This document shows, piece by piece, positions 1 to 58,029 of a DNA stretch of 64,000 nt. The first letter of the stretch is position 1, and every line of letters begins with the position of its first letter. The DNA lies in the NCBI GenBank assembly GCA_019343175.1, contig CM033278.1, positions 14,865,400-14,929,399 on the forward strand, given 5' to 3'. The notes beneath the pieces were generated by a model. The model was not told the origin of the DNA and ran no database searches. It worked only from the letters and a program-made list of their open reading frames with translations. The DNA comes from Oedothorax gibbosus (lineage: Eukaryota). Position numbers and translations under genes: made by a program.

Positions 1-1151
1 TTTGATGGGGTTATCAGAACTTTGTTTTTCAAGCTTTATTTATAAAGTCAATCGTCAATAAAATTGAATTCGATAACAACAGTAAAAAAAATCAGCGACG
101 AACTTTTTCTTGAAAATTAAAATGTAAAAAACACATCAACAGTGTAAATGTGCAATTAAGTTTAAATATTATTAGCTTACAAATGACGAAGCCTCTTATC
201 TTCCTTAATACCTTCTAACCCATAAAACGCTATAAATTATCTTATTGTTAAATAAGATATTTAAAACTTATCCAAACGAAATACTATAACAATAACATTT
301 TTATATGTTTCTCTAAGTATTAAAAACATAACTGTTAGTTACTTCTATTTGTTTGCGCTTTAAATGTAAACAAATACTTCGTAATACTTATAGAAACTAT
401 ACATCAATGTGTCTCAAACATTTTGCAACCCACCAAAATCATGATTTAGATTGAATGGTTGATTGAAATAGTCTGCAAAGATTTGAAACATATTAAATTT
501 AAGTTAAATGAGTGTCTATTAATTATCCATTGCTCTCCAATAATTAAACCGCTAATATGATTAACAATGAGACACTTTTTTTGAAATTATATGGATGTAT
601 GATTAACTAAGTAGAACGTATTAACTATTTCTACGCAATTCTAACAACAACGAGGTTTCCTGGAAAAATATTTTCATCAATTCCAATCATTAATTGGTTA
701 GATATGTGGAGGAAGTTTCTATTTTGTCTACAGATTACACAAAGCTACTTTATGAATTCTTTTAAAATAAAAATCGGTCGAATTTGTAAATAAAAATGAT
801 GTGAGCAATTAGTTTAATTAGATTATTTTTAAAAATTTGCAAAGTTATTTGTTAATAGTTAAACTATCAAATAGGAGTTATCATTTTTGTTAATTTTATG
901 TTAATACTAATTAAAAATCATGCAAATGTTAGCTCATTATCACTAATTCTAAATTAAATATAAGTATTTTTAGTGGTATGTACTACATCTTTATTTGTTA
1001 ACTAAATTGCGTGTAAGTATGACATTACTAATTATCAATAATATATTTGTATTGTAAATGTTAATTAAATTTTTATTATTAAAACTATTATTTATTGTTA
1101 GGAAAATGTGTTGATTTACAATAAAATATTGTTAGTCCAATGAATAAAGGA

Positions 1152-1990
1152 GTTTTACCATACAAAAGGTCCGGTATCGCTGATTTTTTTATATGTTGTG
1201 TGTGACCCCTAGGAAGTAATAAATGTGAGTTTTCGTCATCCTCGTTCTATTGCTTTTTCCGCCATCTTGAAAAAACGTTCGAAATGTCGCCCATTTTCCA
1301 GTTTTTGGCCTATAACTTTTCTCCTAAGCATTTTTAAATAGAACTTTTCGACACAAAGTTGTAGAAAACAAAATTTTCTTCAAAATCGGTATCAAAAGTG
1401 TTTTTCTACGACAAACAGTTAAAGAGCTAAGAAGCAGCAAAAAGGTGTTTCGAAATTTTTTTTACTTTTCCACGACTTTCTATTACCATAACTCACATAA
1501 GACTTCATTTTATCCATAAAATATGATTTTACAAATTGCAGGAAATTCAACTTTCTATATAATACACGTATCAAAAAAGTTACTGATAGATTCCATTAAG
1601 AAAAGTTAAATTTACAGAAACACAAAAAAGGGCTACTTTCACCCGACGATACAATGTTTTATTATTTAACCTATAGCTCTTTCCTAGTGTATTTTTTAGT
1701 GTTTTTGTGAATGCAAAACTTGTTCAAAATAATTTTTCCTATAAAAAGGTTCTTTTGTGTTTCATACGAGGAAATGTAACAGAGCTACGTAGTACGAAAA
1801 GTGGCGTAAACTCTTGAATTCCGCCAAAAGAGTTTTTTACCACTTAAAATCCCAATAATTAAAAAAAATCATTGTTTTAGCGGATCATAATTATTATGAA
1901 ACTTGTAGATATCATCATTTCTTATATTAGTAAGGTCTTAAAAGTAGTTTTAGATTCAATACCAAAGAATTTAGATACATTAAAAAAAAG
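1152..1990. repeat. left long terminal inverted repeat of element 1152-4793
   Basis: 1150-1510 and 1750-1985 reverse-complement-match 4420-4793 and 4200-4400; the left arm has ~250 bp extra (1510-1770). Confidence 0.6.
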
Positions 1991-2412
1991 ATTTGTATTT
2001 TTCATTTGAATAAATGGGCATGATTTGGTAAAAGATTTCAATTTACATGAGTCTGAAGTAAAATTTTCCTTTCAACGGAGAATTTAAATAAAAAATATAA
2101 ACTATTTTATATCCTTTTCGTTTAAGGTATCGTTTAAGTTTTTCGTTAAGGTTTCGTTTAACATCGTACCAATAGAACAATGGAAAAAATATGGGAAAAT
2201 GTGTAATAGAAAATTATCAAATTTACAATGAGTTATTTTAATGAAAAAATTTATGCTTAAAGTAATACACATATAAAAAAACGAAACAATATTCCACGTG
2301 GCATTTATCATGCCTAACAAGTTATATCAGAACTAGCTATATAGAGAATTGAAATGGTACAAATGAAACCGTACACGTATATATCTGTCAAGTGAATCAA
2401 TTACGTTATCAA

Positions 2413-3733
2413 TCAGACTCGTTTGGGTGGTATATAAAGAACTTCAACTGATTCATCTTCATAGTTTGAAATTGTGTCTAGATCAATATCATCTTCGTCG
2501 ACGATGAGTGCCCTATTGTTGCAGGACAGTCCACAGCAGTGCTTACGGAGGTAAGAGCAATACAAGCCAGATTTTCTGCAACTGCATGCATCCAAACAAC
2601 TCTTGATGCATTTACATTTAATCGTTTTCAATAAATCTTTTCGTAGGCGCAGCGTCCTTTTTTGTCATAATAGGCAACAAACCTCTGCTCCCTGTCATCC
2701 ATCCGTAATCGAACTAATTTTTTTGAATTCCTCTCCAGGCCATGACTTGATGGTAAGTCCTCAGTGAATGGAATTGTGATGCGTCGGAGGTTGGTGGCAG
2801 CGTAGCTAAATTGAGCTTTGTGGTGCTGGAAAGAAATTTTGAAAAGCGAAGAATTGTGAGAGACTGATCTTTGTCTCCACCATATAAGGAAACTAAAATT
2901 TCTTCTCCGGCCTTTGAAATTTCTGCCGCAATAGCATCAGGGTTATTGAAAACATCTGCCACATCTAACAAATATGGATTCCTTTGGAAAAGATTGTAGA
3001 ATTTGCCTTTCCCATATCCAATAACGTTGGAAGTAGTGTCACATCCGCTAATGGCATGAAGGAGTAGTAGATATTTAGTCGAACCATTCAGAAATGACGA
3101 AGAAGAGTAGACAATGTCAGGTGAATTGCTTTTCCCTGGTTTTTAAAGGTAGACATTTTTGACAACAGGAGGATCACCAGTTACTACCACCAGTAGGTCA
3201 ATATCTTCACCCACAATCAAAAAAGCTTCATATTGTGAAGCTATTGATTTGGTAGAGTTGACGATTAGAACGTCAGCATCTTAGTCTGCTTGTTTGGTAA
3301 TTATGCCTGAAGTCTCAAGTTCGTTTCTAAGTATAGTTACGAACCGTCTTTTGTTTTGTTCATTGGATAAAAATTTCTCCTGTGGGGTTGTATTTACAGT
3401 TGTTCGGTCAAATATCACATCAGCTGAGATATTCATCTTGCGCCTCCTTAATCGTTCAGCGCTCTTAGTACTCAACTGAATATCATCGGAGTAGCCATCA
3501 AATACAACTATTACCGTAGAGCCATAATGCTTGAGAATGTACTTCCGATAATCAGTGTAGATTTCAGAAAACGTCGCGTTTTGACTCCACACCACTTTGT
3601 AGAGTAGATGTACACCATCAATAACAACCATGCTTTTTGAAGGGAGTTTAAAACTATCTGTAACTGGTGTGAACGCGGAGTACATAGCAGACTTTGTTCC
3701 CTTCCGCATTCCATCTTCATTGAACAGGGACAT
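2413..3733 (-). pseudogene. frameshifted ORF: XPG/FEN1-like N domain (3733-3284), I-domain/H3TH region (~3280-2975, shifted frame), LPPT..HSLRTYHQV region (2971-2714), CXC Cys-rich domain (2631-2413)
   Basis: MVVIDGVHLLY...VIVVFDGYSDDIQLSTKSAERLRRRK matches the FEN1 pattern vAIDaS...VYVFDGKPPqLKsgElaKRseRR; downstream in another frame GEDIDLLVVVTG (EDMDcL-like) and ISGCDTTSNVIGYGKGKFYNLF (H3TH GSDY..GIG-like); the C-terminus is CKCIKSCLDACSCRKSGLYCSYLRKHCCGLSC; interrupted by stops and frameshifts. Confidence 0.55.
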
Positions 3734-4199
3734 AGAAAATGGTGCAAGTTCATATTCCAGATACTCTTTTCTCTCTCTCTGTGTAAGATATTTTACTCGC
3801 TTGAAAAAGTCTACTCTGTAAAGTTTGGAATGTAACTAGAAATATTTAATGACAATAGATGACAACGATTTCCATCATTCCACTTAAGACAAAAAAAAGG
3901 ATCTTACCTTTTCATGAACTCGATATTAGTAGTTAAAAAAAACTTGGATGGAGAGTTATATATTTCTGACGAACCATATACAAAACTCAACATATTTGAG
4001 TTCAGTTGTCTGTAGGCTATCAAATTTACTTTATCTTTCCATGGAAATCTTGATAAAAATTCCATTCCTGACCACTATTTTCTCGAAAAAAGATTTTAGT
4101 TACCATAGTTATTGTTATGGTTGCTATGGTAAATCTAACTGAAAGTATACAGATATCCATTGTGTCCTTAGCAAAACATGTAGCGGCTTCTGCTTATGT

Positions 4200-4793
4200 T
4201 TTTCAAAAAATATACCTAAATTCTTTGGTATTGAACCTAAAACTACTTTTAAGACCTTACTAATATAAGAAATGATGATATCTACAAGTTTCATAATAAT
4301 TATGATCCGCTAAAACAATGATTTTGTTTTAATTATTGGGATTTTAAGTGGTAAAAAACTCTTTTGGCGGAATTCAAAATGTTACGCCACTTTTCGTACT
4401 TATAATCATATTTTATTGCTAAAAGGAAGTCTTATGTGAGTTACGGTGATAGAAAGTCGTGGAAAAATAAAAAAAAATTCGAAACACTCGATTTTACACC
4501 CTTTATGCTGCTTCTTAGCTCTTTAACTATTTGTCGTAGAAAAACACTTTTGATACCGATTTTGAAGAAAATTTTGTTTTCTACAACTTTGTGTGGAAAA
4601 GTTTGATATAAAAATGCTTAGAAGAAAAGTTATAGGCCAAAACCTGGAAAATGGGTGAAATTTCGAACGTTTTTTCAAGATGGCGGAAAAAGCAATAGAA
4701 CGAGGATGACGAAAACTCACATTTATTACTACCTAGGGGTCACACACAACATATAAAAAAATCAGCGATACCGGACCTTTTGTATGGTAAACC
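4200..4793. repeat. right long terminal inverted repeat of element 1152-4793
   Basis: Reverse complement of the left arm; terminal tggtaaacc mirrors ggagttttacca. Confidence 0.6.
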
Positions 4794-4840
4794 CCCTTTT
4801 TGAGTCTCTATTCACTGGACTATGTTCATTTATAAAATAA

Positions 4841-7647: not shown

Positions 7648-8832
7648 TAAAGTTAAAAGCACTTAACTAGATAAAAATTCCTAGTAAAATCTTTAGATTT
7701 ATGGAATATTATGTCAAAGTCATTAAGGGCACAAAACATTTTATAAATATCAAGCAAATATCGTAATAATTATTCAAATAGATATAAAAGTAACTTGCAT
7801 ATACTAATTGTAGGTTTAGCAAATAATGAAACCTTTTGCATTGACAACAAGCTATTAATATGCATAATGCCTCAGCAAACAAAAAAATATAGCCAATCGT
7901 CTTATGTACTTTTTTTTAATTTTGAAATAATAATTATATTTATGATAATGAGATAGTCTAAAAAGATGTAATAAATAGAAACGATATCAAAATTATCAGA
8001 CATACATACAATTAAACAATCCTCCATCGGCAATCGGCATCCATTTAGCAAGGCCCTGGATCTTATCAAAAGGTCACTTTCTTATCCACGGAATTTTACA
8101 TACTACATTCCTTCACATTTTTCATTTGAAACAGATCATTTGGCTTTATTTTTATATATTATAAGTGAAAAATCTGAATAAATGTTGAAACACTCATACG
8201 TTTTTCTTTAAAACTCTGAGTCATTCTTCAGCAACCATCATAAATGTAATAACAACGTTTTACCTAAAAAGAGGGTTATACAGTTCGTTTCTAGAAACGT
8301 ACACATTAAAATGGGTATGATTAAACTGGGTATAATTTTGTATAACTAGATATAATGGGTAAAATTTAAAAATCTTGAAATTTCAAAATTAATAACATTA
8401 AAATGTAAAAACACTTTCTATACTCATTAGCACATGAAACTCAGAAGCACATGAAATTAGTAAATTTATTGCAAGAAATTGTCAAACAAGTTTTCTGAAA
8501 TATTCGTGACAACTAAAAATATAAAATTGATAATCCAAAAAAAAAGAAAATAGATAAATAAATGCATGGAAAATCTGTGAAAATTGGCCATTCTTAAAAT
8601 TACGGTATTAATATAAGTCAAATTTAATATCGGTAACACTTATTTCAAATTTTATTCTACTATTTTATTCTAACTTAGTGAGGTCTTTTGTTGAATCAAA
8701 TATTTTATTAAATAAATTATACTATTTTATTCGGTATAAATACAAAAAATGCCATTTGTGTATTGAAAATACTTATAGTAAACTATTACACATACATATG
8801 GAAATTTTAAAAGATCTTATACTTCATTTTAG

Positions 8833-8876
8833 CGCAAAACTATGATCTTAACAAATGCAAGTCAATACTTCAAGAG
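8833..8876 (+). CDS. SEC14-like (CRAL-TRIO+GOLD) gene, exon a (5'-most exon found; upstream exons not located)
   Basis: Acceptor cattttag; encodes (A)QNYDLNKCKSILQE, matching the CRAL-TRIO-N motif RArsFDLqKSEAMLRK; donor GTGAGA. Confidence 0.5.
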
Positions 8877-9289
8877 GTGAGAATCCCTTTTTTAAATATT
8901 TTTAAATCGGCACCGTTTCTACACTGTCATTATTAAATTTTTGTTTTCAAATTAATGATTTTTAAAGTTAATTTGAAAAATTAAGCTATCAAAATGTATG
9001 AATAATTAGCTATAATTTAACTACAAATCTTTTATTCTTGTTCTATACCATAATAATTGTTTTTCAATGTGCAATTAATAAATAAAAAATATTTAAATAA
9101 AAATAAAGATAAAATAAAATATATATAAAATAAAAAGTTTTATGCTTCTAAATACTTATAATAAAATTAGTCTTAACAAAACTAAAAGTTCCATTATAAA
9201 TCTTTTTTTTTTGTGTTAAGCAAACTTTGATCAAACTTAAAGAATTTTTAAATGTGTTGTTTTCAATTTTTTTTATTTTTTATTTTCAG

Positions 9290-9352
9290 ACAATTTCCCT
9301 TAGAGCTGTACATGACATTGATAAGTTGGTAGAATTTTATAAAAAGCCTGAA
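9290..9352 (+). CDS. SEC14-like gene, exon b
   Basis: Acceptor tattttcag; TISLRAVHDIDKLVEFYKKPE (matches DIDNIISWQPPE); donor GTAAGA; phase 0. Confidence 0.55.
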
Positions 9353-9937
9353 GTAAGAGTTATTCTTTTTACTTAGTTATTTTAATATGTCGGAAGTAGA
9401 TTCTCTTTTGTTTCATAGTATACAATTATAACCTGTTGTAAAAATTAGATGAAAAAATTTAAGAGCAATTTGTGCTACTAACGTAAAAACTAGGAGCAAA
9501 TGTACATTATCTAGGAGCATTTTGCTAAAAATATTTACGGGGGAAAATGCCAATTTTATATAATTTATCCACAAACACTTAAGATTGCCGTTGTTGCGCA
9601 TGTATAGAATCATCAGAACTTCGGAGTTTCAAAAGAACTGGTGAAAATTTTAGAATAACAATTAGCGATCGTCGGAGTATCGCATTTTATGTATCGCCGG
9701 ATTTTTGTTATTTAAGGATCATAATAACTCATAAAGGAACTTTTGACAAATTTAAGATCGTTAAAGATTTGGAGATTTTAGGATTATTATTTTTTCGCAA
9801 GATCTTTGGAAACCACCTTAAAAAGTTGATAATGACATTAAAAAAAACTAACGCTAAAGATTGTTGTTGTTGCGCATGTATAGAATCATCGGAATTTCGA
9901 AGTTTACATAATATTTATTGTTTATTTTTCCACACAG

Positions 9938-10031
9938 GTATTAGAAAAATATGAATTCGTGTCATCGATGGGGTATGCAAAAGATGGAACGCCTATATGT
10001 TACGTTGCTTCAGGAAAAGCAGATTTTTATG
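9938..10031 (+). CDS. SEC14-like gene, exon c
   Basis: Acceptor cacacag; VLEKYEFVSSMGYAKDGTPICYVASGKADFY(G), matching [32 protein letters not shown]; donor GTTAGT. Confidence 0.65.
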
Positions 10032-10729
10032 GTTAGTTTCACACACAAAATCTCTGATTTAGCGTTCTATTTTAATATTGATAAAAAGAAACTTTTTGTA
10101 AAGCAGTATAATGAACGTGTAACAGGTCATTGATAACTCTTCAAATTATTGAAGGAAAAATTAATTATATTTAATTACATTTTATAAAGATACTAGCTTT
10201 ATAAACCCCCGGCGTTGCATGGGGGTACCCTTAATAACGGTGATTTGTTTTTAGTACAGCTTTGATGTAAGAGCAGGTCTGTTCATTGGCGACTTTTAGC
10301 AAGCTTTAACATCTTACAATTTAAATAAACGTATAGCTAAAACGCGATGGATGGATTTGAGGAGTTTGGTTGCAACATTATAAAAGTAAAAAAAACTAGA
10401 CGACTTAAGGCCCAAAGTAAGCTGTCCTAGAAGAATCTCCAACAGAAGGCCTTCGCCCACCCTAAGCTGTCCTGCTAACTATGATGATAATTCAAGAATT
10501 TCATGCATTCGTTTAAATTTGTTCATCTTCTAACAAACTATCTTGTAATTGTCGCTGGGTCTTCAAGTTAGAATCGAACTTAAACCCACTTCAGGTACGA
10601 CGTTAAGTAACAAACAAAACTTTTCTTTTAAAATTGTACAACTGTTTATTAACAGTTCATCATTGGAAAAACAAATATTTTATGGATTGTTTTATATTGA
10701 ATTTGGAAAGCAACCTTGTGATTTTCTAG

Positions 10730-10824
10730 GTTGCATTGCTTCTGTGAATGGCTTCACCCTCTGCCAATACGCCAGTCTTGTGTTAGAATTGGACTTGAGG
10801 AGGACGAGAGAACAAACGAAAAAA
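10730..10824 (+). CDS. SEC14-like gene, exon d
   Basis: Acceptor ttttctag; GCIASVNGFTLCQYASLVLELDLRRTREQTKK; donor GTAAGC; phase consistent with the flanking exons. Confidence 0.55.
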
Positions 10825-11651
10825 GTAAGCGTTTTTAAAGAACGTTATAGTTTATCAAAGGTTGAATTACGAAACCTTGCATCCAACTTCAGAAACGTAA
10901 ACAGAAACACTTTTTATATTTTTTCTAGTTACCTTTTTCTTTTAATTCAACATTTACTGGTTAACATATTCTTCAATGACTCCGCTCACCTATTTCTTTT
11001 GAATTAACAATTGATAATTCTATCCGATACTGAACTTATGACCCTTTTTGCATGCGTTGACAAAACAAATTTTAAGTTTATGGTAGCATACAAAATTCCT
11101 TTTATCTAAGATAGGGTTTGTTTTACTGATTTTCTTAGGAAAAAATCATGCGGTTTCTTGTTAACGTTTTAACCTTTAAATACGTAAAAGAAAAAAACAG
11201 CAATAAATCTTGCTCACAAACTTAATTGATGAGGTAAAACTGCATTTGAAAATGTGTCTTTAAATTTACCTGTGGTTTCTAACGATTATCATCTTCAGAG
11301 CTTATCTACTCTTATCTTGAGAGGCTGGAACTTTATATAAACCTAAAATACATAATAAATATATGATTTCATAGCTTTGGAAATATGTTAAGTTATTTAT
11401 TGGCATTTTTAAATGCTAGGTAATCCTTATTTTTTATTTGTAATCAAATTTATTATTTATCATGTTACTATACCTTTTTCAAAAATATTAAAGCGTACAT
11501 GAACGACATTTTCGTAAATTGAAGTATTCATTGTTATAATACATTGGCGCAGCATATAGGTTTAGCTTGTACTCTATTTTTATAACCTTTTTGCTGGTGA
11601 AAGAGTTAAAAATTCAATTGAACTAGTATCTCTAAATACCCTCTTTTTTAG

Positions 11652-11730
11652 ACTGGTCAGGACATAAACGAAATTACTTACATACTTGACATGGATGAAT
11701 TTTCAATAAGAACTACAGCTCGACAGTGCG
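11652..11730 (+). CDS. SEC14-like gene, exon e
   Basis: Acceptor ttttttag; TGQDINEITYILDMDEFSIRTTARQC (matches [20 protein letters not shown]); donor GTAAGT. Confidence 0.65.
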
Positions 11731-11818
11731 GTAAGTCCAACTAAATACTTTCAATATCCTATTCAATTTTAGGTTATGCATACTTTTATTATGACAGTCG
11801 TCTATTTTTATTTTTCAG

Positions 11819-18224: not shown

Positions 18225-18283
18225 TTAAAAAGTTAGCTACAAGTATCTTACTCCTGCATGCCCATTGACCAGTTAGGTAGGTA

Positions 18284-18462
18284 GGTTGGTACATGTATTT
18301 CCCGGTTTGTGTGCTTGATCAAAAACCCGCTTATAAACCTTCGTTAAGACAGACACAGGCAGAATTTTTACTGACACAGAGAGAAAGTACTCCCAGGTCG
18401 AAGGCGGGAGACTGTTCGAATGGGCTGCGATCAAACCCACTAGGCCACTCGGGCTCCTATTC
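18284..18462 (-). repeat. SINE family S2 copy (tRNA-like head at the high-coordinate side)
   Basis: GGTTGGTACATGTATTTC..GTGTGCTTGATCA..CCGCTTATAAACCTTCG shared with 52414-52606 and 34853-34927. Confidence 0.5.
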
Positions 18463-28950: not shown

Positions 28951-29262
28951 ATAGTTTAGTTTGAAATATCGTCGCACTAGAGCCACACGAGCGCTATTGG
29001 CGACCGGCGTCATAATTTAGAACCACAGTAAGGTGACGGAGCCGACATCTGAGTAGGCACCCAACGCAACCGATAAGGTAGACATTGTACGCAGCGTCGG
29101 GACTTTGGAGCAGATTTAACGTGTACTTCCGCTACACGGGGTATTATTCATCATACATTTTTGGCTGCACGGGCCGTTTATAGGTCGGCAGTTATTTTGG
29201 CGATGTCCGAACCTGGGACCTTCTGCATACAAGGCGAACGCCTTAACCGACTGGGCTCCCCA
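28951..29262 (-). repeat. tRNA-derived SINE family S1, full-length copy
   Basis: Reverse complement starts GGGGAGCCCAGTCGGTTAAGGCGTTCGCCTTGTATGCAGAAGGTCCCAGGTTCG (tRNA-like); tail ...CGCACTAGAGC + CTAAACTAAAC. Confidence 0.55.
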
Positions 29263-31936: not shown

Positions 31937-32267
31937 CCGCGGCAAATTATTTGGGGCGGCGAATTTTATGAACAATTAAAGCGGCATTCGGCATAAAAAA
32001 AATATTATAAGGATATTAATATTTTTAAGAAAAAAACAAATAATTTACATTAATGTGCAAATCGTAAACGTTATATATAGTAGTAATATTTAGTAGTAAA
32101 CATAGTAGCTGCGAGGGCAATTGCACTCCCTCCTCTTGATTTGGAAGTTGAAAGACAAATAGTAGATAGAACAGTTTAAAAAATTCACCTAATATTTAAA
32201 GTGTACATTGATGATTCTAATATGTAGAAAGAAAAAAAATAGTCAAGAAAACTATATCTGGCGGCAA

Positions 32268-33445
32268 ATCGATCTAGTCCAGGCAACGAAGAGTTATGGA
32301 GGGAAAGTTTTGGAACACAATTTTTGACTTTGTAACTTTGTTTGGACTAGTTAGGAGATGAACATATCAAAAATCCCCGCCCCTAGCCCCTGAGCCGAAG
32401 GGAGGAGAGGGGGTTAAATGTCCCATTTTTCGATTTTTTGCTTATATCTCGAAAACTATGCGTCCTACCGATTTAATTGTAATACACAAAATGAAAGCTG
32501 ATTAAATTTGCTACAAGTTTCACCCCTCAAGTGTTATAATATCTTGTATAGTTTTCGAGATATCCGCTCTTGAAAGTCTGTAATTTTGGAGAAAACATTT
32601 TTTCCCCCACATTTTTCCTCTTTTTTGACCAAATAACTCTTCAATAATGCACCGAAACACTAAATATTGACCCTAGAGTGGTAGAGAATTTAATTCTTTT
32701 CAATAATATATTTTACTTTACTATTTTATCTATTTTAATTCAAATTTTAAAGCAGTTTCAGTATTGAGCGAAGAGGGATTGTCAGTCCCATAGAGCTAAT
32801 ACATTAGTTTTGAAATCACAACTTTTGCAAAAAAATTACTTTGTCATGTTATCAAATTTTTACCAGGTATGGGAATCATCATAATATCAATTTAAAACAA
32901 AATTGCAAAGAAAATAACATCCGGTTATTTAATTATTAATTGTTAAAGTTTTAAAAATAGTGTCGCCATCTGCTGTATATTTTTGGAATTATAAAATTTC
33001 AAAAATATATAATTAAATAACTAGATAACATTTTCGTTTCAAATTTGTTTCATTTCGATGTTATGTTGTTTCCCGTACCTGGGGAAAAAGGGCTGTCATG
33101 GCAAAGCAATACATCTGCGGAAGTTGTGATTCCAAAACTAATGCAATAGCTCTATGGAACTGACAATCCCTCTTATGTACACTTATTCTATACTGAATGT
33201 TTAAACAAAATCCAGATACTCATTTTGTAGGCACGCTGTTACTTTAATATTTTATCTATTTTTATATTCTATTGTTATCTATTTCATTTCATTCGTCGGA
33301 CCCCAGTAAGAAAACAGTCAGATGATCATCCTGTTCTTCTTTATCTTCCTAGTCAACTTGAGAGACCCCATTGAGGCAAGTCCCCTGGCAATTTTGGAAT
33401 GCTGAGGAACATTTGAGACTTACTTTTTTACAGCTACACTTTGAG
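32268..33445. repeat. left arm of the large palindrome (inverted duplication)
   Basis: Reverse complement matches 34178-36207 except for an 812-bp insertion and a homopolymer expansion in the right arm. Confidence 0.7.
32772..33174. mobile_element. foldback-type element (palindromic MITE), copy a
   Basis: AAGAGGGATTGTCAGTCCCATAGAGC...GCTCTATGGAACTGACAATCCCTCTT; its internal halves are mutually inverted. Confidence 0.5.
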
Positions 33446-34020
33446 CTGGAACAGTGTTTCATGCATCTGCAGAAAATTATTTTCAAAATATCGTCATGCG
33501 TTGCTGCTAACTCACTGTGCACTGGGACCAGGCAGTTGTTCTCAATCTTCCACTCATACATCTCAGGAGGCAGGTCATTTTCCAGCCACAGCTGAACTTG
33601 GTGGAATGTTCGGAGGGAATGCTGTTTTACTGTTCCCTCGGTGGGAGGTAAACAAGAGATATCAGTCTTGATGGTGGCCACTGATCTTAAGAATCACTTA
33701 TATCTGTAGGCATTGAGGGAGGCCTCTTTCGTTAGAGCCCCATACCACCTCAAAGCGCAGGTTTCGTCTGCCTTTTGAACCTGATCAGTGGTTGAGGAAA
33801 GGTCCGAAAAGCTGCTGCTTTCTGGACCTATGGCGACTTCAGATAAAGCTTCGCAAATGCGACCTTGCTTTTTCGAAATGCGGAAGATGTAGTGTCGCAT
33901 CCAGTAAATGCGTGCAAAAATAGCACGTCCTTTAAACCCAGTTGCTGAAGCTCTTAGGACGAGAAGAAAGAATCCTGTGTCTTCCCACGTGCAGGCTTTA
34001 AGTAATGCCCTTACGCGCAT
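33349..34020 (-). pseudogene. C-terminal fragment of the same FEN1/XPG-CXC ORF family as 2413-3733, at the palindrome centre
   Basis: ..FSDLSSTTDQVQKAD.. / LPPTEGTVKQHSLRTFHQVQLW...CRCMKHCSSSKCSCKKVSLKCSSAFQNCQGTCLNG parallels FSKFLSSTTKLN / LPPTSDASQFHSLRTYHQVMAW + CKCIKSCLDACSCRK.. of the first copy. Confidence 0.5.
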
Positions 34021-34466
34021 CAGCTTTAGCCATCAAGATTCAAGAGGACTATAAGGTCGACATCTTCATTCTTCACCTACAATGCCGACAGCTTGTGTTT
34101 TCGACATTTCCACAGCTGTATCCAAGTTGATCCAATTGTTCTCAAGCTTCACCTTAAGTATGTTGATGATGATGTATGTTGATGAGACTGTGCCAGCTTA
34201 AAGTGTAGCTGCAAAAAAGCAAGTCTCAAATGTTCTTCAGCATGCCGAAATTGCCAGGGGACTTGCCTCAATGGGGTCTCTCAAGTTGACTTCGAAGATA
34301 AAGAAGAACAGGAGGATCATCTGACAGTTTTCCTACTGGGGTCCAAAGAATGAAATGAAATAGATAACATAGAATATGAAAATAGATAAAATATTAAAGT
34401 AACAGCGTGCCTACAAAATGAGTATCTGGGTTTTATTTAGACATTCAGTATAGAATAAGTGTACAT

Positions 34467-35698
34467 AAGAGGGATTGTCAGTTCTATAGAGCTAATGCAT
34501 TAGTTTTGGAATCATAACTTCCACAGATGCATTGCTTTGCCATGTTAGCCCTTTTCCCCCAGGTACGGGAATCAACATAACATCGAAACAGTAGCGCCGG
34601 AACTTATTATTTAGAGGTATGGCAAGAAATTCCTCAATCTACCCCCTCCTCCCACTCTAGATGTTTTAAATATATAGTATTATATTATTTAACAAATAAG
34701 TATTTTTCAATAAAATTAAAAAATTCCTAATAGAATACGCACAGTGATTTTTCAAAGCCAGAATACAGACGTGACTTTTGGGACACCCTGTACTATATTA
34801 TAAAAAACATTTCAATGTTACCGACTAGAAAAAGATGTGATTTAAATAAATTAGTTGGTTGGTTGGTTGGTAGACATATATATTCAGGTTTGTGTGCTTG
34901 GTCAGCGACCCGCTTATAAACCTTATAAATTAATTTATTTCTCAATGTCTGAAATTAAACAGCTATTTGGAAATATAAAATGCAGAAAGCAAACAAACTC
35001 TTTTATCTATATAGAAAATGTTAGTTAACATAAAAAGTTAATATTTAAAACAAAAAAATATGTATATATAATGATACATCATTAATTATGCCTAAAGGTT
35101 GATTTCTTTTATTTGTTTTAGAAACAAACGCTTCAATTATATTCTCAATGTTTATATTTGACAAAAGCCCATTACTACAGATCCCCAGTAGGGGAATGTG
35201 TATACGTGTTATCTTTCTCGGTGTGGTGTGGTTGTGAGGTAGGATATGTGACAAAAATATTTGCAAGTTTAATTGGTTTTGTTGGATTTTTTTCACATGG
35301 TCACTTTTGGGTTTGATTTTGTAAAATGGAAAAAAACGCATAACATATAATCTGTGCAAAAGCTAGTAAGGCAACTGCCATACCGGTTCCGGCGCCACTG
35401 CATCGAAATGAAACAAATTTGAAACGAAAATGTGATCTAGTTATTTAATTATATATTTTTGAAATTTTATAATTCCAAAAATATACAGCAGATGGCGACA
35501 CTATTTTTAAAACTTTAACAATTTATAATTAAATAACCGGATGTTATTTTTGTTTCAATTTAGTTTTAAATTGATATTATGATGATTCCCATACCTGGTA
35601 AAAATTTGATAACATGACAAAGTAATTTTTTTGCAAAAGTTGTGATTTCAAAACTAATGTATTAGCTCTATGGGACTGACAATCCCTATTCGCTCAAT
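34467..35698. mobile_element. foldback-type element, copy b (in the right palindrome arm, interrupted by the hAT-like MITE)
   Basis: Same termini as copy a, reverse orientation. Confidence 0.5.
34589..35400. mobile_element. hAT-like MITE (812 bp) with 8-bp target-site duplication CATCGAAA
   Basis: CATCGAAA|CAGTAGCGCCGGAAC...GTTCCGGCGCCACTG|CATCGAAA; the uninterrupted left arm (33050-33060) shows a single copy of the target. Confidence 0.7.
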
Positions 35699-36716
35699 AC
35701 TGAAACAGTTTTAAAATTTGAAGGAAAATAGATAAAATAGTAAAGTAAAATATATTATTGAAAAGAATTAAATTCTCTACCACTCTTGGGTCAATATTGA
35801 GTGTTTCGGTGCATTATTGAAGAGTTATCCGGTCAAAAAAGAGAGAAAATGTGGGGGGGAAATGTTTTCTCCAAAATTACAGACTTTTAAGAGCGGATAT
35901 CTCGAAAACTATACAAGATATTAAAACACATGAGGTGTGAAACTTGTAGAAAATTTAATCAGCTTTCATTTTGTGTATTACAATTATATAGGTAGGATGC
36001 ATAGTTTTCGAGATATAAGCAAAAAACCGAAAAATGGGACATTCAACCCCCCCCCCCTCCCCCCTTCGGCTCAGGGGCTAGGGACGGGGACTTTTGATAT
36101 GTTCACCTCCTAACTAGTCCAAACAAAGTTACAAAGTCAAAAATTGTGTTCCAAAACTTTCCCTCTATACCCTTTTTTCAGCCTTCGTTGCCTGGACTAA
36201 TCGTAGCCTACAAGCGGCAAATCTTTAAATCCGGCCCTGCCCGGACCCGAACCTGGGACCTTCCTCGTGCAAGGCGAACGCCTTGTTATTATGCTGGCAT
36301 TATGAAAAGAACCCCAGTTTTTTTTTTTTTTAAATAAATTCTAAATATTTAAAAATATAGGATAAAAGTTGATTTTTTATCAGTTTTTCCAAATTTATAT
36401 CATAATTAATCAATTTTAAATATTTTTTATATTTTGTTCATTGAATATATATAGAGTGGTGATGAAGTAACTTAACATAAAGAACAAAACCTTCAGCATG
36501 GTTATTAAAAAAATTGCATTGATGAGGATTCGTTGATAAGCACTTGAGAATGACGTACAGAAATTTGAAAGTTAAAAATAGTTGTTTTAAAAATTGCTAA
36601 AATATGCCTGAGATTGATTATCAAAATTCTAAACGCATTAGAAGTTTTGAAATAACGGGATAGTTTCTATATCTGCTAAAAGAAAAAAAATACCTTGATT
36701 AGACTAATATTGTTTA

Positions 36717-37125
36717 AGAGGGACTGTCAGTCCCATAGAGCAAATGCATTAGTTTTAAAATCACAACTTTTGCAAAAGAATAACTTTGTCCCATGTTATC
36801 CCATTTTCACCAGGTATGGGAATCATCATAACATCAATTTATAACAAAATTGAAAAGAAAATAACATCTGGTCATTTGATTAATAATTGATAAAATTTTA
36901 AAATAGTGTCGCCATCTGCTAGTGCTGTATAGTTTTGGCATTTTAAAACTTCAAAAATATATAATTAAACAACTACATGACATTTTCGTTTCAAATTTGT
37001 TTCATTTTGATGTTATGTTGATTCCCATACCTGGGGAAAAGGGCTAGCATGGCAAAGCAATACTTCTGCAGAAGTTGTGATTCCAAAACTAATTCATTAG
37101 CTCTATGGGACTGACAATCCCTCTT
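36717..37125. mobile_element. foldback-type element, copy c (outside the palindrome)
   Basis: AAGAGGGACTGTCAGTCCCATAGAGC...GCTCTATGGGACTGACAATCCCTCTTA. Confidence 0.5.
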
Positions 37126-37304
37126 AATCACCCCCACATATGTATAAGCGACCTTAAATTCCAATTTCCTCTCAAGTGGCACTTTCTATTTTGTCCTTCT
37201 ACGTTTATTTCCTTTTAATTTTAAAAATATGACAATAAATAAAACTAATAAACTGTTCCCAAAGAATGAAGGGTTTTTTTTAAGTCTCTTTTAGAAAAAG
37301 ATTC

Positions 37305-37420
37305 TGTCAGAAGTGGGATTCGAACCCACGCCCACATTCGTGGACCAGAACACTCAAACTCTGCTTCAGAGTAAGGAAGATCCTTGAGTCTGGCGCCTTA
37401 GACCGCTCGGCCATCCTGAC
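37305..37420 (-). tRNA. tRNA-Leu (anticodon CAA) with a 32-nt intron after position 37
   Basis: Reverse complement reads GTCAGGATGGCCGAGCGGTCTAAGGCGCCAGACTCAAG[gatcttccttactctgaagcagagtttgagtg]TTCTGGTCCACGAATGTGGGCGTGGGTTCGAATCCCACTTCTGACA; a T-run lies downstream on the minus strand. Confidence 0.85.
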
Positions 37421-38803: not shown

Positions 38804-40578
38804 TAGAACACCATACAAAATTTCGGAAAACTTATTAAAGGGATAGAAGGAAATCATATTGATATTAATTTGCATCTCTAACAATTTAAAATTGTTTCAA
38901 GAAAAATGAAATCTTTACATTTATAAGCATATCTTTAATAAGCAACCAACACTTGTTGTCTGTCGATTGAGAGTTTTAATGGTTGGATTATCTAAAAGCT
39001 TGATCAGATAACTGTTGATATGGCAAAACAAGTTATTATAAATTAATAGATTCTTTGTGTCAAAACTAGTAGGTGACATTAGCTAGTTTTAAATAAGTAA
39101 ATATGTTTTGGCTAGTGTATATTTATTATAAAATATCATTTTATTTTATACCCTTTTAATAGTTTGTTAGATAAAAAAAAGTTTGTTTAAAATATACTAG
39201 TCACAATAATCCTAGAATTACCTACCTCAACTGACCTTACTTCAATAGTAATTCATTTGTGTGTTTTTTATCCAGCAAAGTCCAAACGAAAAAATTATAT
39301 TTTCGTATTTGGCGAATATAATTAACCTTGAACTGGATGTACTTTTCTTTAAAAAAAATCACACACAAAATTGCGTTTTGGGTAATTTCTTTTAAGCAGA
39401 CACCACTGACTTAAAAATCGCCAAATAAGTGATATAAGGTCCCACTTATTTCAACTTGGTCATTTAAAAGAGCAAAGTATTAATAAATCATCTTATATAC
39501 TCCTGAGATCTAACATCCAATTTAAAGACATGTTTTGATTTACTTCCCTTCAACTACACAATTTATTTTTACTTTATGCACTGAAATGGTTTGATGGGAG
39601 AAGATCTAAAAATCCCTTTCAGGCTTTGATCAGTGGTATCGGTTTCAGTAGTTTATGTCTATGAAAAAAAATGAAGTTGTACAATGGTCCACACAATTTC
39701 AAAGTTCTTGCGGTTTTTTCAACAGCTACTTTCAAAGGTATTTTTCATTAAAAGCAGTGTTGTTAATTACAAACTGAATATTCTACTTGAACTTTTGACT
39801 ATTAATTACGAAAACACTGGTTTTAGCATTCATAGCACACATAAAAGTGTATTTTTAAGATTTCAAATGAAATTGATGTGCCCCTCAGTACGTATTACAC
39901 ATTAGTTTTTTCAAAAAAATTTGTTAACCTGCTTTTTAATCATTATATTTGTTTGAAAAATGTCTTTATGATGTTATATGTGTAGGATTTTACTGGGGTC
40001 TCAAGGAGTATATTATTGCAACCCTGATACTACATGATTTCCCACTTTGACTTTATTCATGGATTACAAAATCTGCAAAAAACATTTTCATTTTTGTTTA
40101 TTATTTACCTTTTTTTATAATATTTTATAAGGGGAGGAGTCAGGGATGTTTTTAAAAGTAAACAAAACATTGAATTTTTCTAATTCAAAATGCCTTAAAA
40201 CTGTATTTTGTGGCTTCGGATTTTTTTTAAGGTAAATAAAGTTTTGAGTTACCCTATTTCTAAAAATTATGCCTAAAACTTGATTATGGGGTCATGAAAA
40301 TGATTAGGTAAAAAGTTCTTTTTCTAACTCTAGCTTCAATTTTGGCTACAGTGGTTGGAGACTTTTATGGATTGGGGTTTAACGGAAAAATATCAAATTT
40401 TGTTTACATCTTCTTTCTTTTTTAACAATGAATATCATTTACTTTTCTATTTGAAATTATTAAATGTTTCATTTGGTTTCAGAAAGTCCAGATTTTCGAA
40501 TACATGTCCAAATCAAAGGCTTGCTGGTGATTGAGATTTTATTTAAAAAAAATCTTTCAAAATAACTTAGTTTTAAGC

Positions 40579-41757
40579 ATGAATGACGACACAAGGAAGC
40601 CTAGTGTGGATGCTCCGGTTGAACTTGAAAGTCAGTTTATTCTACGCTTACCTTCCACACCTGCTGCTTCTTTAAGAGCAGCAGTGAAGTCTGGTGTGGC
40701 CAACTTGGAAGACAGGCTTGCTATTCAGTTAGAGGCAGATATGAGGCATGCCACGGTTCAGTTTGATAAATGGACATTACCAGCAAAACTTTATGACCTT
40801 CCCACCATAATTGAGTCCTGCAAGACATTAGACAAGAAGATTTTCTACAAGACGGCCGACCTATGCCAAATAATGATAGCTCACGAGGGTGATGCTGCCA
40901 AAAGTGATGAAGAAGTTTCTCCCAAGAAAAAAGACAAAGATGCCAAGGACAAGCGATACATGCTTCCACATGGGATAACAGCACCTTTGAAAAATGTGAG
41001 GAAAAGACGGTTCCGTAAGACCCTAAAGAAGAAATATGTTGATTTACCTGACGTAGAGAAAGAGGTCAAGCGCTTACTCCGAACTGACACAGAAGCTATC
41101 AGTGTTCGATATGAAGTAGTAAACGCTGAAGACGAAAAAGCTGATGGGAAGAACAACGAAAGAGAATTTGGTGCAGATGGCTTGGAAGAAAGAGAACTGA
41201 GCAACTCCCAAGCAGCAGATGTTGCAGAATACGACCTCTTTGGTGAAGTCCTCAGCAGCTCGGAAGAAAGTGGAGACGAGGAAGATGTAAATGTGGTTGA
41301 TTTGGGACAAGCTGCCCGCAAGTTGGAAAGCATCATTGAAGAACAGGACAAGGCAGATGAAGGTTCCTCCAAGGTCACCAAGGACACGGATGACCTGGCC
41401 AAGAGCATGCAGATGAGCCCGGATCCGTCAGACCAATTCCAAGACTATGGCAACGAGAACGACAGCATGGCGGTCTCTCAACTGGAATCGGCGACGGCTG
41501 GAGAAAACCTTGGACAGCTGCTCAAAGAACAGAAGACGGAAGAAGAAAGGATGGCTTTGATGGAAAAAATGGTCGAGTTGGAGCATGCAATATCAAACTT
41601 GCAGGCTTCAAGAAGGGCTCAGGAGGCTAAGGTTATTAACATTGAAAATGTTGCCCTCAGGCAACGATTCCAAACCACCATTGAGCAACTCAAGCAAGAG
41701 GAGTATGAGAAACAGATGGAGTATAATGAAATTGTGAGTATACTTCAAGAGGGCTAA
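40579..41757 (+). CDS. TAF7: TAF7 (TFIID subunit 7), intronless, 392 aa
   Basis: MNDDTRKPSVDAPVELESQFILRLP...WTLPAKLYDLPTIIESCKTLDKKIFYKTADLCQIM...YMLPHGITAPLKNVRKRRFRKTLKKKYVDLPDVEKEVKRLLRTD...acidic region...C-terminal coiled coil; matches the human TAF7 motifs ESQFILRLP and HGITLPLKNVRKRRFRKT. Confidence 0.85.
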   Translation: MNDDTRKPSVDAPVELESQFILRLPSTPAASLRAAVKSGVANLEDRLAIQLEADMRHATVQFDKWTLPAKLYDLPTIIESCKTLDKKIFYKTADLCQIMIAHEGDAAKSDEEVSPKKKDKDAKDKRYMLPHGITAPLKNVRKRRFRKTLKKKYVDLPDVEKEVKRLLRTDTEAISVRYEVVNAEDEKADGKNNEREFGADGLEERELSNSQAADVAEYDLFGEVLSSSEESGDEEDVNVVDLGQAARKLESIIEEQDKADEGSSKVTKDTDDLAKSMQMSPDPSDQFQDYGNENDSMAVSQLESATAGENLGQLLKEQKTEEERMALMEKMVELEHAISNLQASRRAQEAKVINIENVALRQRFQTTIEQLKQEEYEKQMEYNEIVSILQEG

Positions 41758-51905: not shown

Positions 51906-52413
51906 TTTTAAAAAATAATAATTCTTATAATTGAGATAAAATCAAAACTGCTATCTTCTCTTTCAACAATCGACACTTGAGTTATCAGCAGATTGTTTTA
52001 ATTTTGCTGTGTGTGTGATATCTTTTTATACTTATGTTTTTTAATTCCTTTTAGACTAAGTCGTTCATTATAAAGATTATTCATATTTTAAATTACTAAT
52101 CTTAAATAACATATTCAAAGATATTCTTTAATCTTTAGTTCTGTTTTATGGTAATTATTGTAAATGCCCTTGGTTTCCTTGTGTTCAACGATTTTAACTG
52201 TCTATTTCTAAGTCCATCAAGAGCAAGCAAACTGGAAACCTACAAACGCTTTGTAACTTAAATAGTGTTTTGGTTTAGTTACTTAGCATCCAAATGTAAT
52301 TTAGGTTACTGACGATAGATCTAAAAATGTTTAGCGAGGGACGATAAGAAATAGTAATTTATTATTACTAGGATTGGTTTTAACAACAATCGTATTGGTG
52401 TTAACAATGTGTG

Positions 52414-52606
52414 TTGGTTGGTACATGTATTTCAGGCTTGTGTGCTTGATCAGAGACCCGCTTATAAACCTTCGTCAAGTAAGACAGACACAGACAGAAT
52501 TTTTACTGAGACAGAAAAATTACACGAAGGCGGGAAGGGAATCGAACCCACACCCGGTGCAGTGAGCACTGAGCAGACTGTTAGCGTAATGGTCAGCGAA
52601 GAGCCC
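52414..52606 (-). repeat. SINE family S2 copy with a tRNA-like head (reverse complement shows a GGGTTCGATTCCC T-arm)
   Basis: Shared 5' ~130 bp with 18284-18462. Confidence 0.5.
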
Positions 52607-56829: not shown

Positions 56830-57373
56830 CTGAAAAAAACCATTGATATAAATATGAGTTTAACATTTGAATACTTACGCAGCACAGCACTCCATGGCTT
56901 AATTTCTGCAATACAATGAAATATAGCCGTACGAAAAACCTATAAATACTATAGACTTTTTTAAAACTCTCTCTCTCTCTCTATAAGCGGTTTATCACAA
57001 TCCACCTAATTTCATTTTCATTTAATTCCTCTTTTATATTTAGTTATTAGTTTAAAGAAACTAAAATAACTTAGTTACCAAGGAGGGGAAATCTAAAATT
57101 GATACAGATCTCCTAAACGGTAAATCATTATAAATGTGAACCTTAGTGTAAAATTAGTTTTAAAAATAATAGATAACGGTAATTGCAAATTAATAATTTA
57201 AATTATTTCTGACTACAGACCATTTAATGAAACTAATAGTTTTAGAGACACTTTAAGTCAAGTTAGGTTTTACCTTCAAATAGTCATCTAAATTTCAAAA
57301 CATGCTCGTGTATTTTGAAATACATAGTTAATTATGAAAACAACAAAAGAGTTAAGAGCTTGCTTTTACTTAC

Positions 57374-58029
57374 CTAGATATTACTGAATCATATTTATCG
57401 AGATATTTCACGTCTACCCAAGATACATGATACCAATCTTTGTATCCTTCCACTCCGCAACAGCTGTAATTAATCTGCAATAGATCTATCTTCTCCTTCA
57501 CGTTTTTATCCCTACTGTACCTTTCCATGCTGTCTTTCAGACCTTTGCCAAGAGCGCCCCTTAATACACGGATATCCCCAAAAAGGGTGAAAGTCGCCAC
57601 AGCAACAAGCAATACAACTGCTCCAGACGCCACGAGGTATATGAAAAGGTAAAAGGCTGCCGATTTTGCTTCATCGAGATCTTCGATTCGGCGACTGCCA
57701 ACTGCAGCTTTCACACCAAGAAGACTCGCCAAGACTATGGCAATACCTGACACGAGAAGTATGGCGGGAACAGATTGCAGCTGGTAGTAGTCTTGAAGAA
57801 AAGTTATCTGTTTTGTTTGGGAATTTCGGACATACCAGCTCAATATAATGAAAATAACACCACAGTTTATAGATATGAAATTTGCGACTATTAGAAAGAG
57901 GCTGATTATCTGCCTTAAGTTTTCCGATACATGGCATGAAAATATGTAGTTGCGGTTACTATTAAAATCGGTAGGCAGAAGATCGGTTGAAGATTCTTCA
58001 GAAAAGTCTTTATCTTCGTCTGAACTCAT
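57374..58029 (-). CDS. tetraspanin exon 1 (ATG at 58027-58029): N-terminus, TM1-TM3, start of the large extracellular loop with the CCG motif
   Basis: ...IISLFLIVANFISINCGVIFIILSWYV...AILLVSGIAIVLASLLGV...AFYLFIYLVASGAVVLLVAVATFTLF...INYSCCGVEGYKDWY...; donor GTAAGT after ATATCTAG. Confidence 0.7.

Follow-up and report, generated by a model that had tools for sequence, protein, structure and literature searches.

An AcademX transposon relic in the spider Oedothorax gibbosus forms a large palindrome whose inverted ends were very probably lengthened by one synthesis error

Introduction

The Academ superfamily of transposons reportedly goes back to a 2010 description by Kapitonov and Jurka in Repbase Reports. 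Here, we examine one of its relics, a palindrome of ~3.9 kb (element E2, 32275-36199) in a 64,000-nucleotide stretch of the spider Oedothorax gibbosus (assembly GCA_019343175.1, contig CM033278.1, positions 14,865,400 to 14,929,399 of the forward strand), called the window below, with positions counted from its first letter. The closest described system is AcademX, the branch of Academ that encodes an XPG-type nuclease, defined by a transposase, an XPG nuclease, a Cys8 zinc finger and 3-bp target-site duplications (TSDs) in animals (Kojima 2020, Mob DNA 11:15, PMC7165386). That paper describes no long terminal inverted repeats (TIRs), and a literature search on long-TIR Academ elements returned nothing beyond it.

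The palindrome had been picked out by a sequence-only reading, which placed at its centre a fragment of what it called a “FEN1/XPG-CXC element”. We find that it is a genuine and ordinary transposon relic, neither a mis-assembly nor a special chromosomal structure, and we propose that E2 is very probably a single old, non-autonomous AcademX copy whose inverted ends were lengthened to ~1.18 kb by one error of DNA synthesis. Like AcademX, E2 and a second element in the same window (E1) have an XPG/FEN nuclease followed by a Cys8 (CXC-like) finger, together with 3-bp TSDs and TIRs. Unlike AcademX, both are without the DDE domain, and E2 is also without the N-terminal half of the nuclease. The TIRs measure 0.44-0.85 kb in the relatives that have them, as against 1.18 kb in E2.

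Results

A repeat search and BLAST placed the inverted repeat at 32270-33455, which is the reverse complement of 34187-34588 plus 35401-36203, and excluded a chance origin (BLAST E = 0). The refined arms are 32275-33457 on the left and 34185-34588 plus 35401-36199 on the right, on either side of a unique centre of about 727-731 bp. Once an 812-bp insertion had been taken out of the right arm, global alignment (1179 aligned positions) gave an arm identity of 94.6%, with 64 substitutions (36 transitions and 28 transversions), indels of 10, 4 and 1 nt, and a G/C tract that is 4 nt longer in one arm than in the other. Along the arm, identity stays at roughly the same level, with values of 94.0% for the outer 437 bp, 96.0% for a nested foldback miniature inverted-repeat transposable element (MITE), 96.5% for the 3' untranslated region (3'UTR) and 91.6% for the end of the open reading frame (ORF). 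The flanking DNA is unique and not mirrored, with inverted homology stopping at 32275 and 36199. Tandem Repeats Finder (TRF) detected no tandem arrays in 32200-36300, and inside the palindrome neither an Rfam family nor an intact ORF was found.

The palindrome had thus been located essentially correctly, but “near-perfect” was too strong a description, and the right arm does not differ from the left only by the insertion and the expansion of a C tract; the tract difference itself is real and stands alongside the substitutions and indels given above. What had been said of its contents holds. The unique centre of ~730 bp is a fragment of the nuclease-CXC element, namely a decayed 3' part of its ORF on the minus strand; the end of that ORF lies inside both arms (35 codons in the present frame, about 55 in the ancestral frame); and each arm holds a complete foldback MITE, which in the right arm is interrupted.

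The arms stop exactly at transposon termini, TAGTCCAGGCAACG...CGTTGCCTGGACTA, with ATC directly outside each, as read from the sequence. Because the outer ends are the element's own termini and carry a 3-bp TSD, the arms are the terminal inverted repeats of a transposon; the inverted duplication that had been reported is therefore genuine, but the palindrome is not a free-standing structure. Of the six occurrences of the heptamer TAGTCCA/TGGACTA in the 64 kb, four are the termini of E1 and E2 and two lie subterminally within the E2 arms. All eight AcademX copies examined have a perfect 3-bp TSD next to TAGNCCAG termini. Some coral AcademH termini also start with TAGTC or TAGCC (PMC7165386 supplement). 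The reconstructed empty site of E2 would read ...GGCAAATCG-ATC-GTAGCCTAC..., also given as ...CTGGCGGCAAATCG-ATC-GTAGCCTACAAGCGG....

A 10-bp direct repeat, GCGGCAAATC (32261-32270 and 36214-36223), was considered as the TSD and rejected, being offset from the termini in a family that makes 3-bp TSDs. Its two copies lie near, not at, the ends of E2, and would be 22 bp apart in the reconstructed empty site.

To which family does this transposon belong? In longer homologs, the nuclease module is directly preceded by the motif FI(K/R)AERTGxW...MLPYF.A.GH.NY.KS..LYLQ.M...W.G.WSD..IEQ, which is the C-terminal portion of the Academ transposases aligned in Data S3 of PMC7165386. By tblastn, the Academ-1_AP DDE domain taken from this alignment matches a full-length relative in the ant Temnothorax nylanderi (L009) at 8346-9582 (43% identity, E = 2.5e-97). 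The match lies within the long TIRs and shares a strand with the nuclease gene, shortly upstream of it, so that an Academ DDE domain is fused there upstream of the same module as in E2 and E1. The same domain also matches loci in Bemisia and Oratosquilla; it found no match in the copies from the aphid Rhopalosiphum maidis, in a Joint Genome Institute (JGI) metagenome contig (L005) or in the copy from the leaf beetle Phaedon cochleariae (L007). Given the shared module, termini and TSDs, and the DDE domain in a full-length relative, the “FEN1/XPG-CXC element” is therefore AcademX. Since E2 and E1 have no DDE domain, they are assigned to AcademX by their nuclease/zinc-finger module, termini and TSDs, and are filed as non-autonomous derivatives and not as autonomous members.

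The ORF of E2 spans the region from the helix before the ExDADxLIV/GEDxDL motifs to its stop codon (33349), with internal stops and one frameshift, and retains only the C-terminal half of the nuclease domain. The Cys8 zinc finger that follows the nuclease is present, FCRCMKHCSSSKCSCKKVSLKCSSAFQNCQGTC, with one cysteine mutated; nine cysteine columns are invariant across 14 homologs. From sequence the evidence for a nuclease is weak (Pfam XPG_N, E = 0.004; match to the EXO1 profile from the PDB, E = 0.058), and Pfam at its curated thresholds did not recognise one. However, the AlphaFold2 model of an intact homolog (P0001; predicted local distance difference test (pLDDT) score 80.5) matches FEN-superfamily nucleases only, with T5 flap endonuclease first in the fold search (1.2e-6), then FEN1, EXO1, Rad2/XPG and GEN1. 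Structure prediction and fold search settle the fold, and the predicted domain is the XPG/FEN-type nuclease by which AcademX is defined. A search with the reconstructed E1 protein returned 353 relatives in ants, aphids, whiteflies, spiders, beetles, mussels, mantis shrimp and hagfish, most of them annotated as “uncharacterized” or “Tesmin/TSO1-like CXC domain-containing”.

E1 is the more complete of the two derivatives in the window. Its XPG-Cys8 ORF (~2440-3808, minus strand) has three stops and one frameshift, and its inverted ends of ~600 bp (1133-1981 and 4209-4822) are 91-96% identical, the left arm holding an extra 259 bp at 1532-1790; the termini are TAGTCCAATG... and ...CACTGGACTA (TAGTCCA). 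In R. maidis there are four copies (L001-L004, 5270-8652) of 3384 bp, 99.9-100% identical, with 466-bp TIRs, termini TAGCCCAG / TAGCCCAGTCAAATTAG and the perfect TSDs CTT, CTA, ATT and TAT. Each encodes an intact 530-aa nuclease plus zinc-finger ORF (P0027) without a DDE domain, and their near-identity implies that a nuclease-only element was mobilised recently in this aphid. A 174-bp piece of the TIR occurs a third time inside these copies (7886-8059). The Temnothorax element is 8.07 kb long, with 852-bp TIRs (94.6% identical), termini TAGGCCAG / TAGGCCAGTCA and the TSD CTA. The Phaedon copy (9015-11792, OU896709.1) belongs to the same subfamily as E2 and is 2.78 kb long, with TIRs of ~440 bp and the TSD AAG; its DNA identity to E2 is 78-81%, and that of the metagenome contig L005 is 84%. 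E1 and four of the six relatives examined carry long inverted ends, which are a trait of this transposon family.

Across hosts, the E2 subfamily shows 78-85% DNA identity, non-coding TIRs included, between spider, leaf beetle and metagenome contigs (L005, L010). Identity this high greatly exceeds what such old lineages should show and suggests that this AcademX family was transferred horizontally. A single JGI sample, 3300079305, supplied the best relatives of E1 and E2 alike, and a protein-guided scan of JGI metagenome contigs found one further partial contig, without ends.

Comparison with its subfamily locates where E2 has departed from the normal structure. In L005 the ORF, the 3'UTR and the terminus are colinear with those of E2, the contig ending 2 nt past TGGACTA, and the Phaedon copy has the same order. 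The TIRs of the Phaedon copy cease to match each other at the equivalent of ~32711, and beyond this point the right arm of E2 keeps following the sequence on the gene's 3' side. The foldback MITE is missing from both relatives, which have a different sequence of ~91 bp in its place. The E2 arm is therefore an ancestral TIR of ~437 bp plus an extra inverted duplication of ~745 bp, which is made up of 60 bp of subterminal DNA, the MITE, the 3'UTR and the end of the ORF, and the 5' part of the gene is missing. Arm identity is 94.0% in the TIR part and 94.9% in the extension.

At its left edge, the unique centre is ordinary ORF sequence, colinear with L005. There is a single novel junction, where the 12-mer TCATCAACATAC occurs twice, 16 nt apart, as against once in L005, amounting to a 16-nt templated duplication. 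The junction microhomology is 2 nt if exact (CT, 34185-34186) or 5/6 nt (CAGTCT versus CAGGCT). On the minus strand, the arm end ...GCACAGTCT is joined to CATCAACATAC..., corresponding to L005 position ~980. Searched as an exact 24-nt string, the junction had no match in the JGI metagenome contigs. In a 5-way outgroup alignment the differences between the arms were all private mutations, 14 in the left arm and 7 in the right.

The two smaller elements nested in E2 bear on its history. The foldback MITE has the ends AAGAGGGATTGTCAG...CTGACAATCCCTCTT, and no recognisable TSD was found around it. A third copy, 89% identical, lies at 36716-37126, 0.5 kb to the right of E2. The 812-bp insertion has the TIRs CAGTAGCGCCGGAAC and CAGTGGCGCCGGAAC and a perfect TSD, CATCGAAA, at 34581-34588 and 35401-35408. 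As had been claimed, this TSD is intact and the inverted duplication is older than the insertion, since only the right arm carries the latter and the left arm keeps the single, unduplicated target. We call the insertion hAT-like from the length of its TSD only, no transposase relative having been sought. A 63-73-nt internal piece of it (34862-34924) recurs at 52413-52472 and 18271-18341 with 82-89% identity, and its TIRs do not recur elsewhere in the window.

Other features lie outside E2 (the positions of E2, E1 and their parts are collected in Table 1). An Rfam tRNA match of 116 nt at 37305-37420 on the minus strand (48.2 bits, E = 4e-8) probably marks a tRNA gene with an intron. ARAGORN found no tRNA in the whole window. 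A 38-nt repeat (89% identical) at 36247-36284, just to the right of E2, and at 29207-29244 resembles a tRNA T-arm, CCGAACCTGGGACCTTC...CAAGGCGAACGCCTT, and is possibly a tRNA-derived short interspersed nuclear element or a pseudogene. Farther on are an intronless TAF7 gene (40576-41757, plus strand), 100% identical to O. gibbosus JTE90_000122, a match that assigns the window to this species, and a tetraspanin exon (57370-58029, minus strand).

Table 1. Positions of E2, E1 and their component features in the window
Feature	Position	Strand	Remarks
E1, second DDE-less AcademX derivative, more complete, 3.69 kb	1133-4822	-	TSD TGT at 1130-1132 and 4823-4825
Left 3-bp TSD of E2, ATC	32272-32274		Same as 36200-36202
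Ancestral TIR on the 3' side of the gene, terminus TAGTCCAGGCAACGAAG starting at 32275	32275-32711	+	Homologs: both TIRs of L007, 3' end of L005; inverted subterminal heptamer copy at 32343-32349
Foldback MITE in left arm, ~405 bp	32771-33175		186-nt arms, 77% complementary; mirror at 34466-35690, interrupted
Decayed 3' part of AcademX XPG-like nuclease and Cys8 zinc-finger ORF	33349-34171	-	76% identity to P0121; colinear with L005 992-1902
Unique centre of palindrome, ORF sequence only	33458-34184		No second DNA-level copy in the window
Single novel junction of E2	34158-34186	-	12-mer TCATCAACATAC at 34174-34185 and 34158-34169, 4-nt spacer
Right arm, inverted copy of 32275-33457, interrupted by hAT-like MITE, terminus ...CTTCGTTGCCTGGACTA ending at 36199	34185-36199	-	94.6% identity
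hAT-like MITE in right arm, 812 bp, non-coding	34589-35400		15-bp TIRs (one mismatch), 8-bp TSD
Right 3-bp TSD of E2, ATC	36200-36202		Read from sequence

Discussion

How might an AcademX copy have come to be a palindrome? E2 shows one junction, with microhomology and a templated filler; the second would be masked by the TIR or have given way to it. Such a structure points to a single error of DNA synthesis. The starting point would have been a normal element of the subfamily, with TIRs of ~440 bp starting TAGTCCAGGCAACG and 3-bp TSDs. In the error, its whole 5' part (the nuclease domain's N-terminal half with whatever preceded it, for instance a DDE transposase) would have been exchanged for an inverted copy of its 3' part, that is, of the subterminal DNA, the nested foldback MITE and the 3'UTR, together with the final ~35-55 codons of the ORF. 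The setting may have been gap repair, replication or transposition, and we can picture two variants. In one, the nascent strand copying one TIR would jump to the inverted TIR, proceed inward through the MITE and the end of the ORF, and then go back into the ORF. In the other, an element broken within the ORF, its 3' terminus free, would fold back 727 nt from the break and be filled in to the terminus; with two identical ends, it would then integrate with a 3-bp TSD. Either variant would leave one microhomology junction with a 16-nt templated duplication. The likely order of events would be acquisition of the MITE, then the inverted duplication and then decay, during which the hAT-like MITE would have inserted, the arms diverged by 5.4%, and the ORF gained its stops and frameshift. 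The sequence-only reading had offered “aberrant transposition or hairpin resolution”; given the one junction, the microhomology and the templated filler, this comes close to the most likely origin, in which the step that we infer is a template switch or a fold-back, either at this locus or before insertion.

A different history could produce a similar structure. Two MITE-bearing copies of the subfamily may have inserted nearby, tail to tail, and later lost both 5' parts in a deletion end-joined at 34158-34186. Local reinsertion is common among DNA transposons, end joining after a deletion also gives one junction with microhomology and filler, and the 5.4% divergence of the arms could partly predate insertion. 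Separate insertions should not share a TSD, yet both flanks of E2 read ATC, which would happen by accident once in 64. Moreover, three events are needed in place of one, with an already multiplied MITE-bearing copy, opposite insertions close to each other and the deletion, and the arm differences, which are private to single arms when set against the outgroups, give no subfamily signal. We consider this history improbable.

A mis-assembly, caused by a chimeric long read that folds back or by haplotypes mis-joined in inverted orientation, is less probable still. Palindromic artefacts are known from long-read assemblies, but such mirrors are essentially identical and have no unique spacer, whereas the arms of E2 differ by 64 substitutions and several indels, one arm only has gained an 812-bp insertion with its own 8-bp TSD, the arms end at transposon termini with a TSD in unique flanks that are not mirrored, and the 731-bp spacer and the templated-filler junction are biological signatures. 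The earlier statement that E2 is no trivial assembly mirror was right. We give similarly little credence to a palindrome of the host chromosome that arose through fold-back inversion where both DNA strands had broken, and that would have nothing to do with the transposon's own ends, would be possibly functional and maybe a fragile site. Its large inverted repeat, short spacer and a junction microhomology like that of fold-back inversion junctions would fit; however, copying in a chromosomal fold-back would have run on beyond the terminus into flanking DNA, and here the homology ends at TAGTCCAG termini with a TSD. In addition, the content is only transposable element and MITE in neutral decay (stops in the ORF, transitions roughly equal to transversions), with no RNA family and no intact ORF inside. 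The suggestion that the palindrome is a fragile and recombinogenic site likewise lacks specific support.

Several observations weigh against our proposal of a single synthesis error in an AcademX copy. A match of the 3-bp TSD taken alone has a chance of 1/64, and the TSD overlaps a palindromic ATCGAT in the flank, so that 4 nt could instead belong to a slightly longer inverted repeat that contains a 1-nt indel. By tblastn with the Academ-1_AP DDE domain, an Academ DDE transposase is absent from E2, from E1 and from the whole window. Around two of the six relatives examined, the homologs in Bemisia (L008) and Oratosquilla (L011), no long TIRs were found. The rearranged form is known from one O. 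gibbosus copy in the 64-kb window, without an observed empty site. Finally, the arm identity of the TIR part versus the extension and the outgroup comparison do not separate the two variants of the mechanism, and the 10-bp terminal indel is distributed ambiguously in the 5-way alignment.

The main value of these findings lies in annotation, as the “FEN1/XPG-CXC” repeats, which are common in arthropod and mollusc genomes, can now be named AcademX. For transposon specialists, they establish that the TIRs of AcademX can reach 0.4-0.85 kb with conserved TAGNCCAG termini, and the aphid copies imply recent mobility of DDE-less elements that keep only the nuclease and zinc-finger ORF. In E2 itself, the lengthening of TIRs by a single template switch or fold-back would be cleanly preserved. 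A bolder view is that the DDE-less, long-TIR elements with only the nuclease and Cys8 finger (E1 and the R. maidis copies) form a maintained lineage, as opposed to chance products of deletion, in which the FEN-type nuclease aids mobilisation and palindromic copies are by-products. The nuclease would then process flap or hairpin intermediates of the long inverted ends, and E2-like palindromes would arise from hairpin chemistry; we think this unlikely.

Beyond AcademX, E2 can be compared with other systems of long inverted ends and of aberrant synthesis. As in Foldback (FB) elements and long-TIR Mutator-like elements (for example PMC3310237), the inverted ends of E2 are very long for an element of its size. 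Unlike E2, in which TRF found no such repeats, FB elements have arms made of tandem subrepeats, and the length of the TSD and the encoded protein also set E2 apart from the Mutator and FB groups.

Chromosomal fold-back inversion and inverted-repeat-mediated template switching are models of template exchange during replication. E2 resembles their products in having an inverted duplication with a spacer and one microhomology junction, the other being hidden in inverted repeats; it differs in that the event is confined within a 4-kb mobile element, with no change in host copy number and no host inversion. A further comparison is with the Ac and Ds elements of maize, where abortive gap repair, according to work attributed to Rubin and Levy in 1997, is said to yield the internally deleted Ac derivatives known as Ds. 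As with Ds derived from Ac, E2 combines an internal deletion and a junction with microhomology and filler with termini and a TSD that have been kept; unlike in Ds, the lost segment has been replaced by the inverted other end of the element, and the TIRs have been lengthened.

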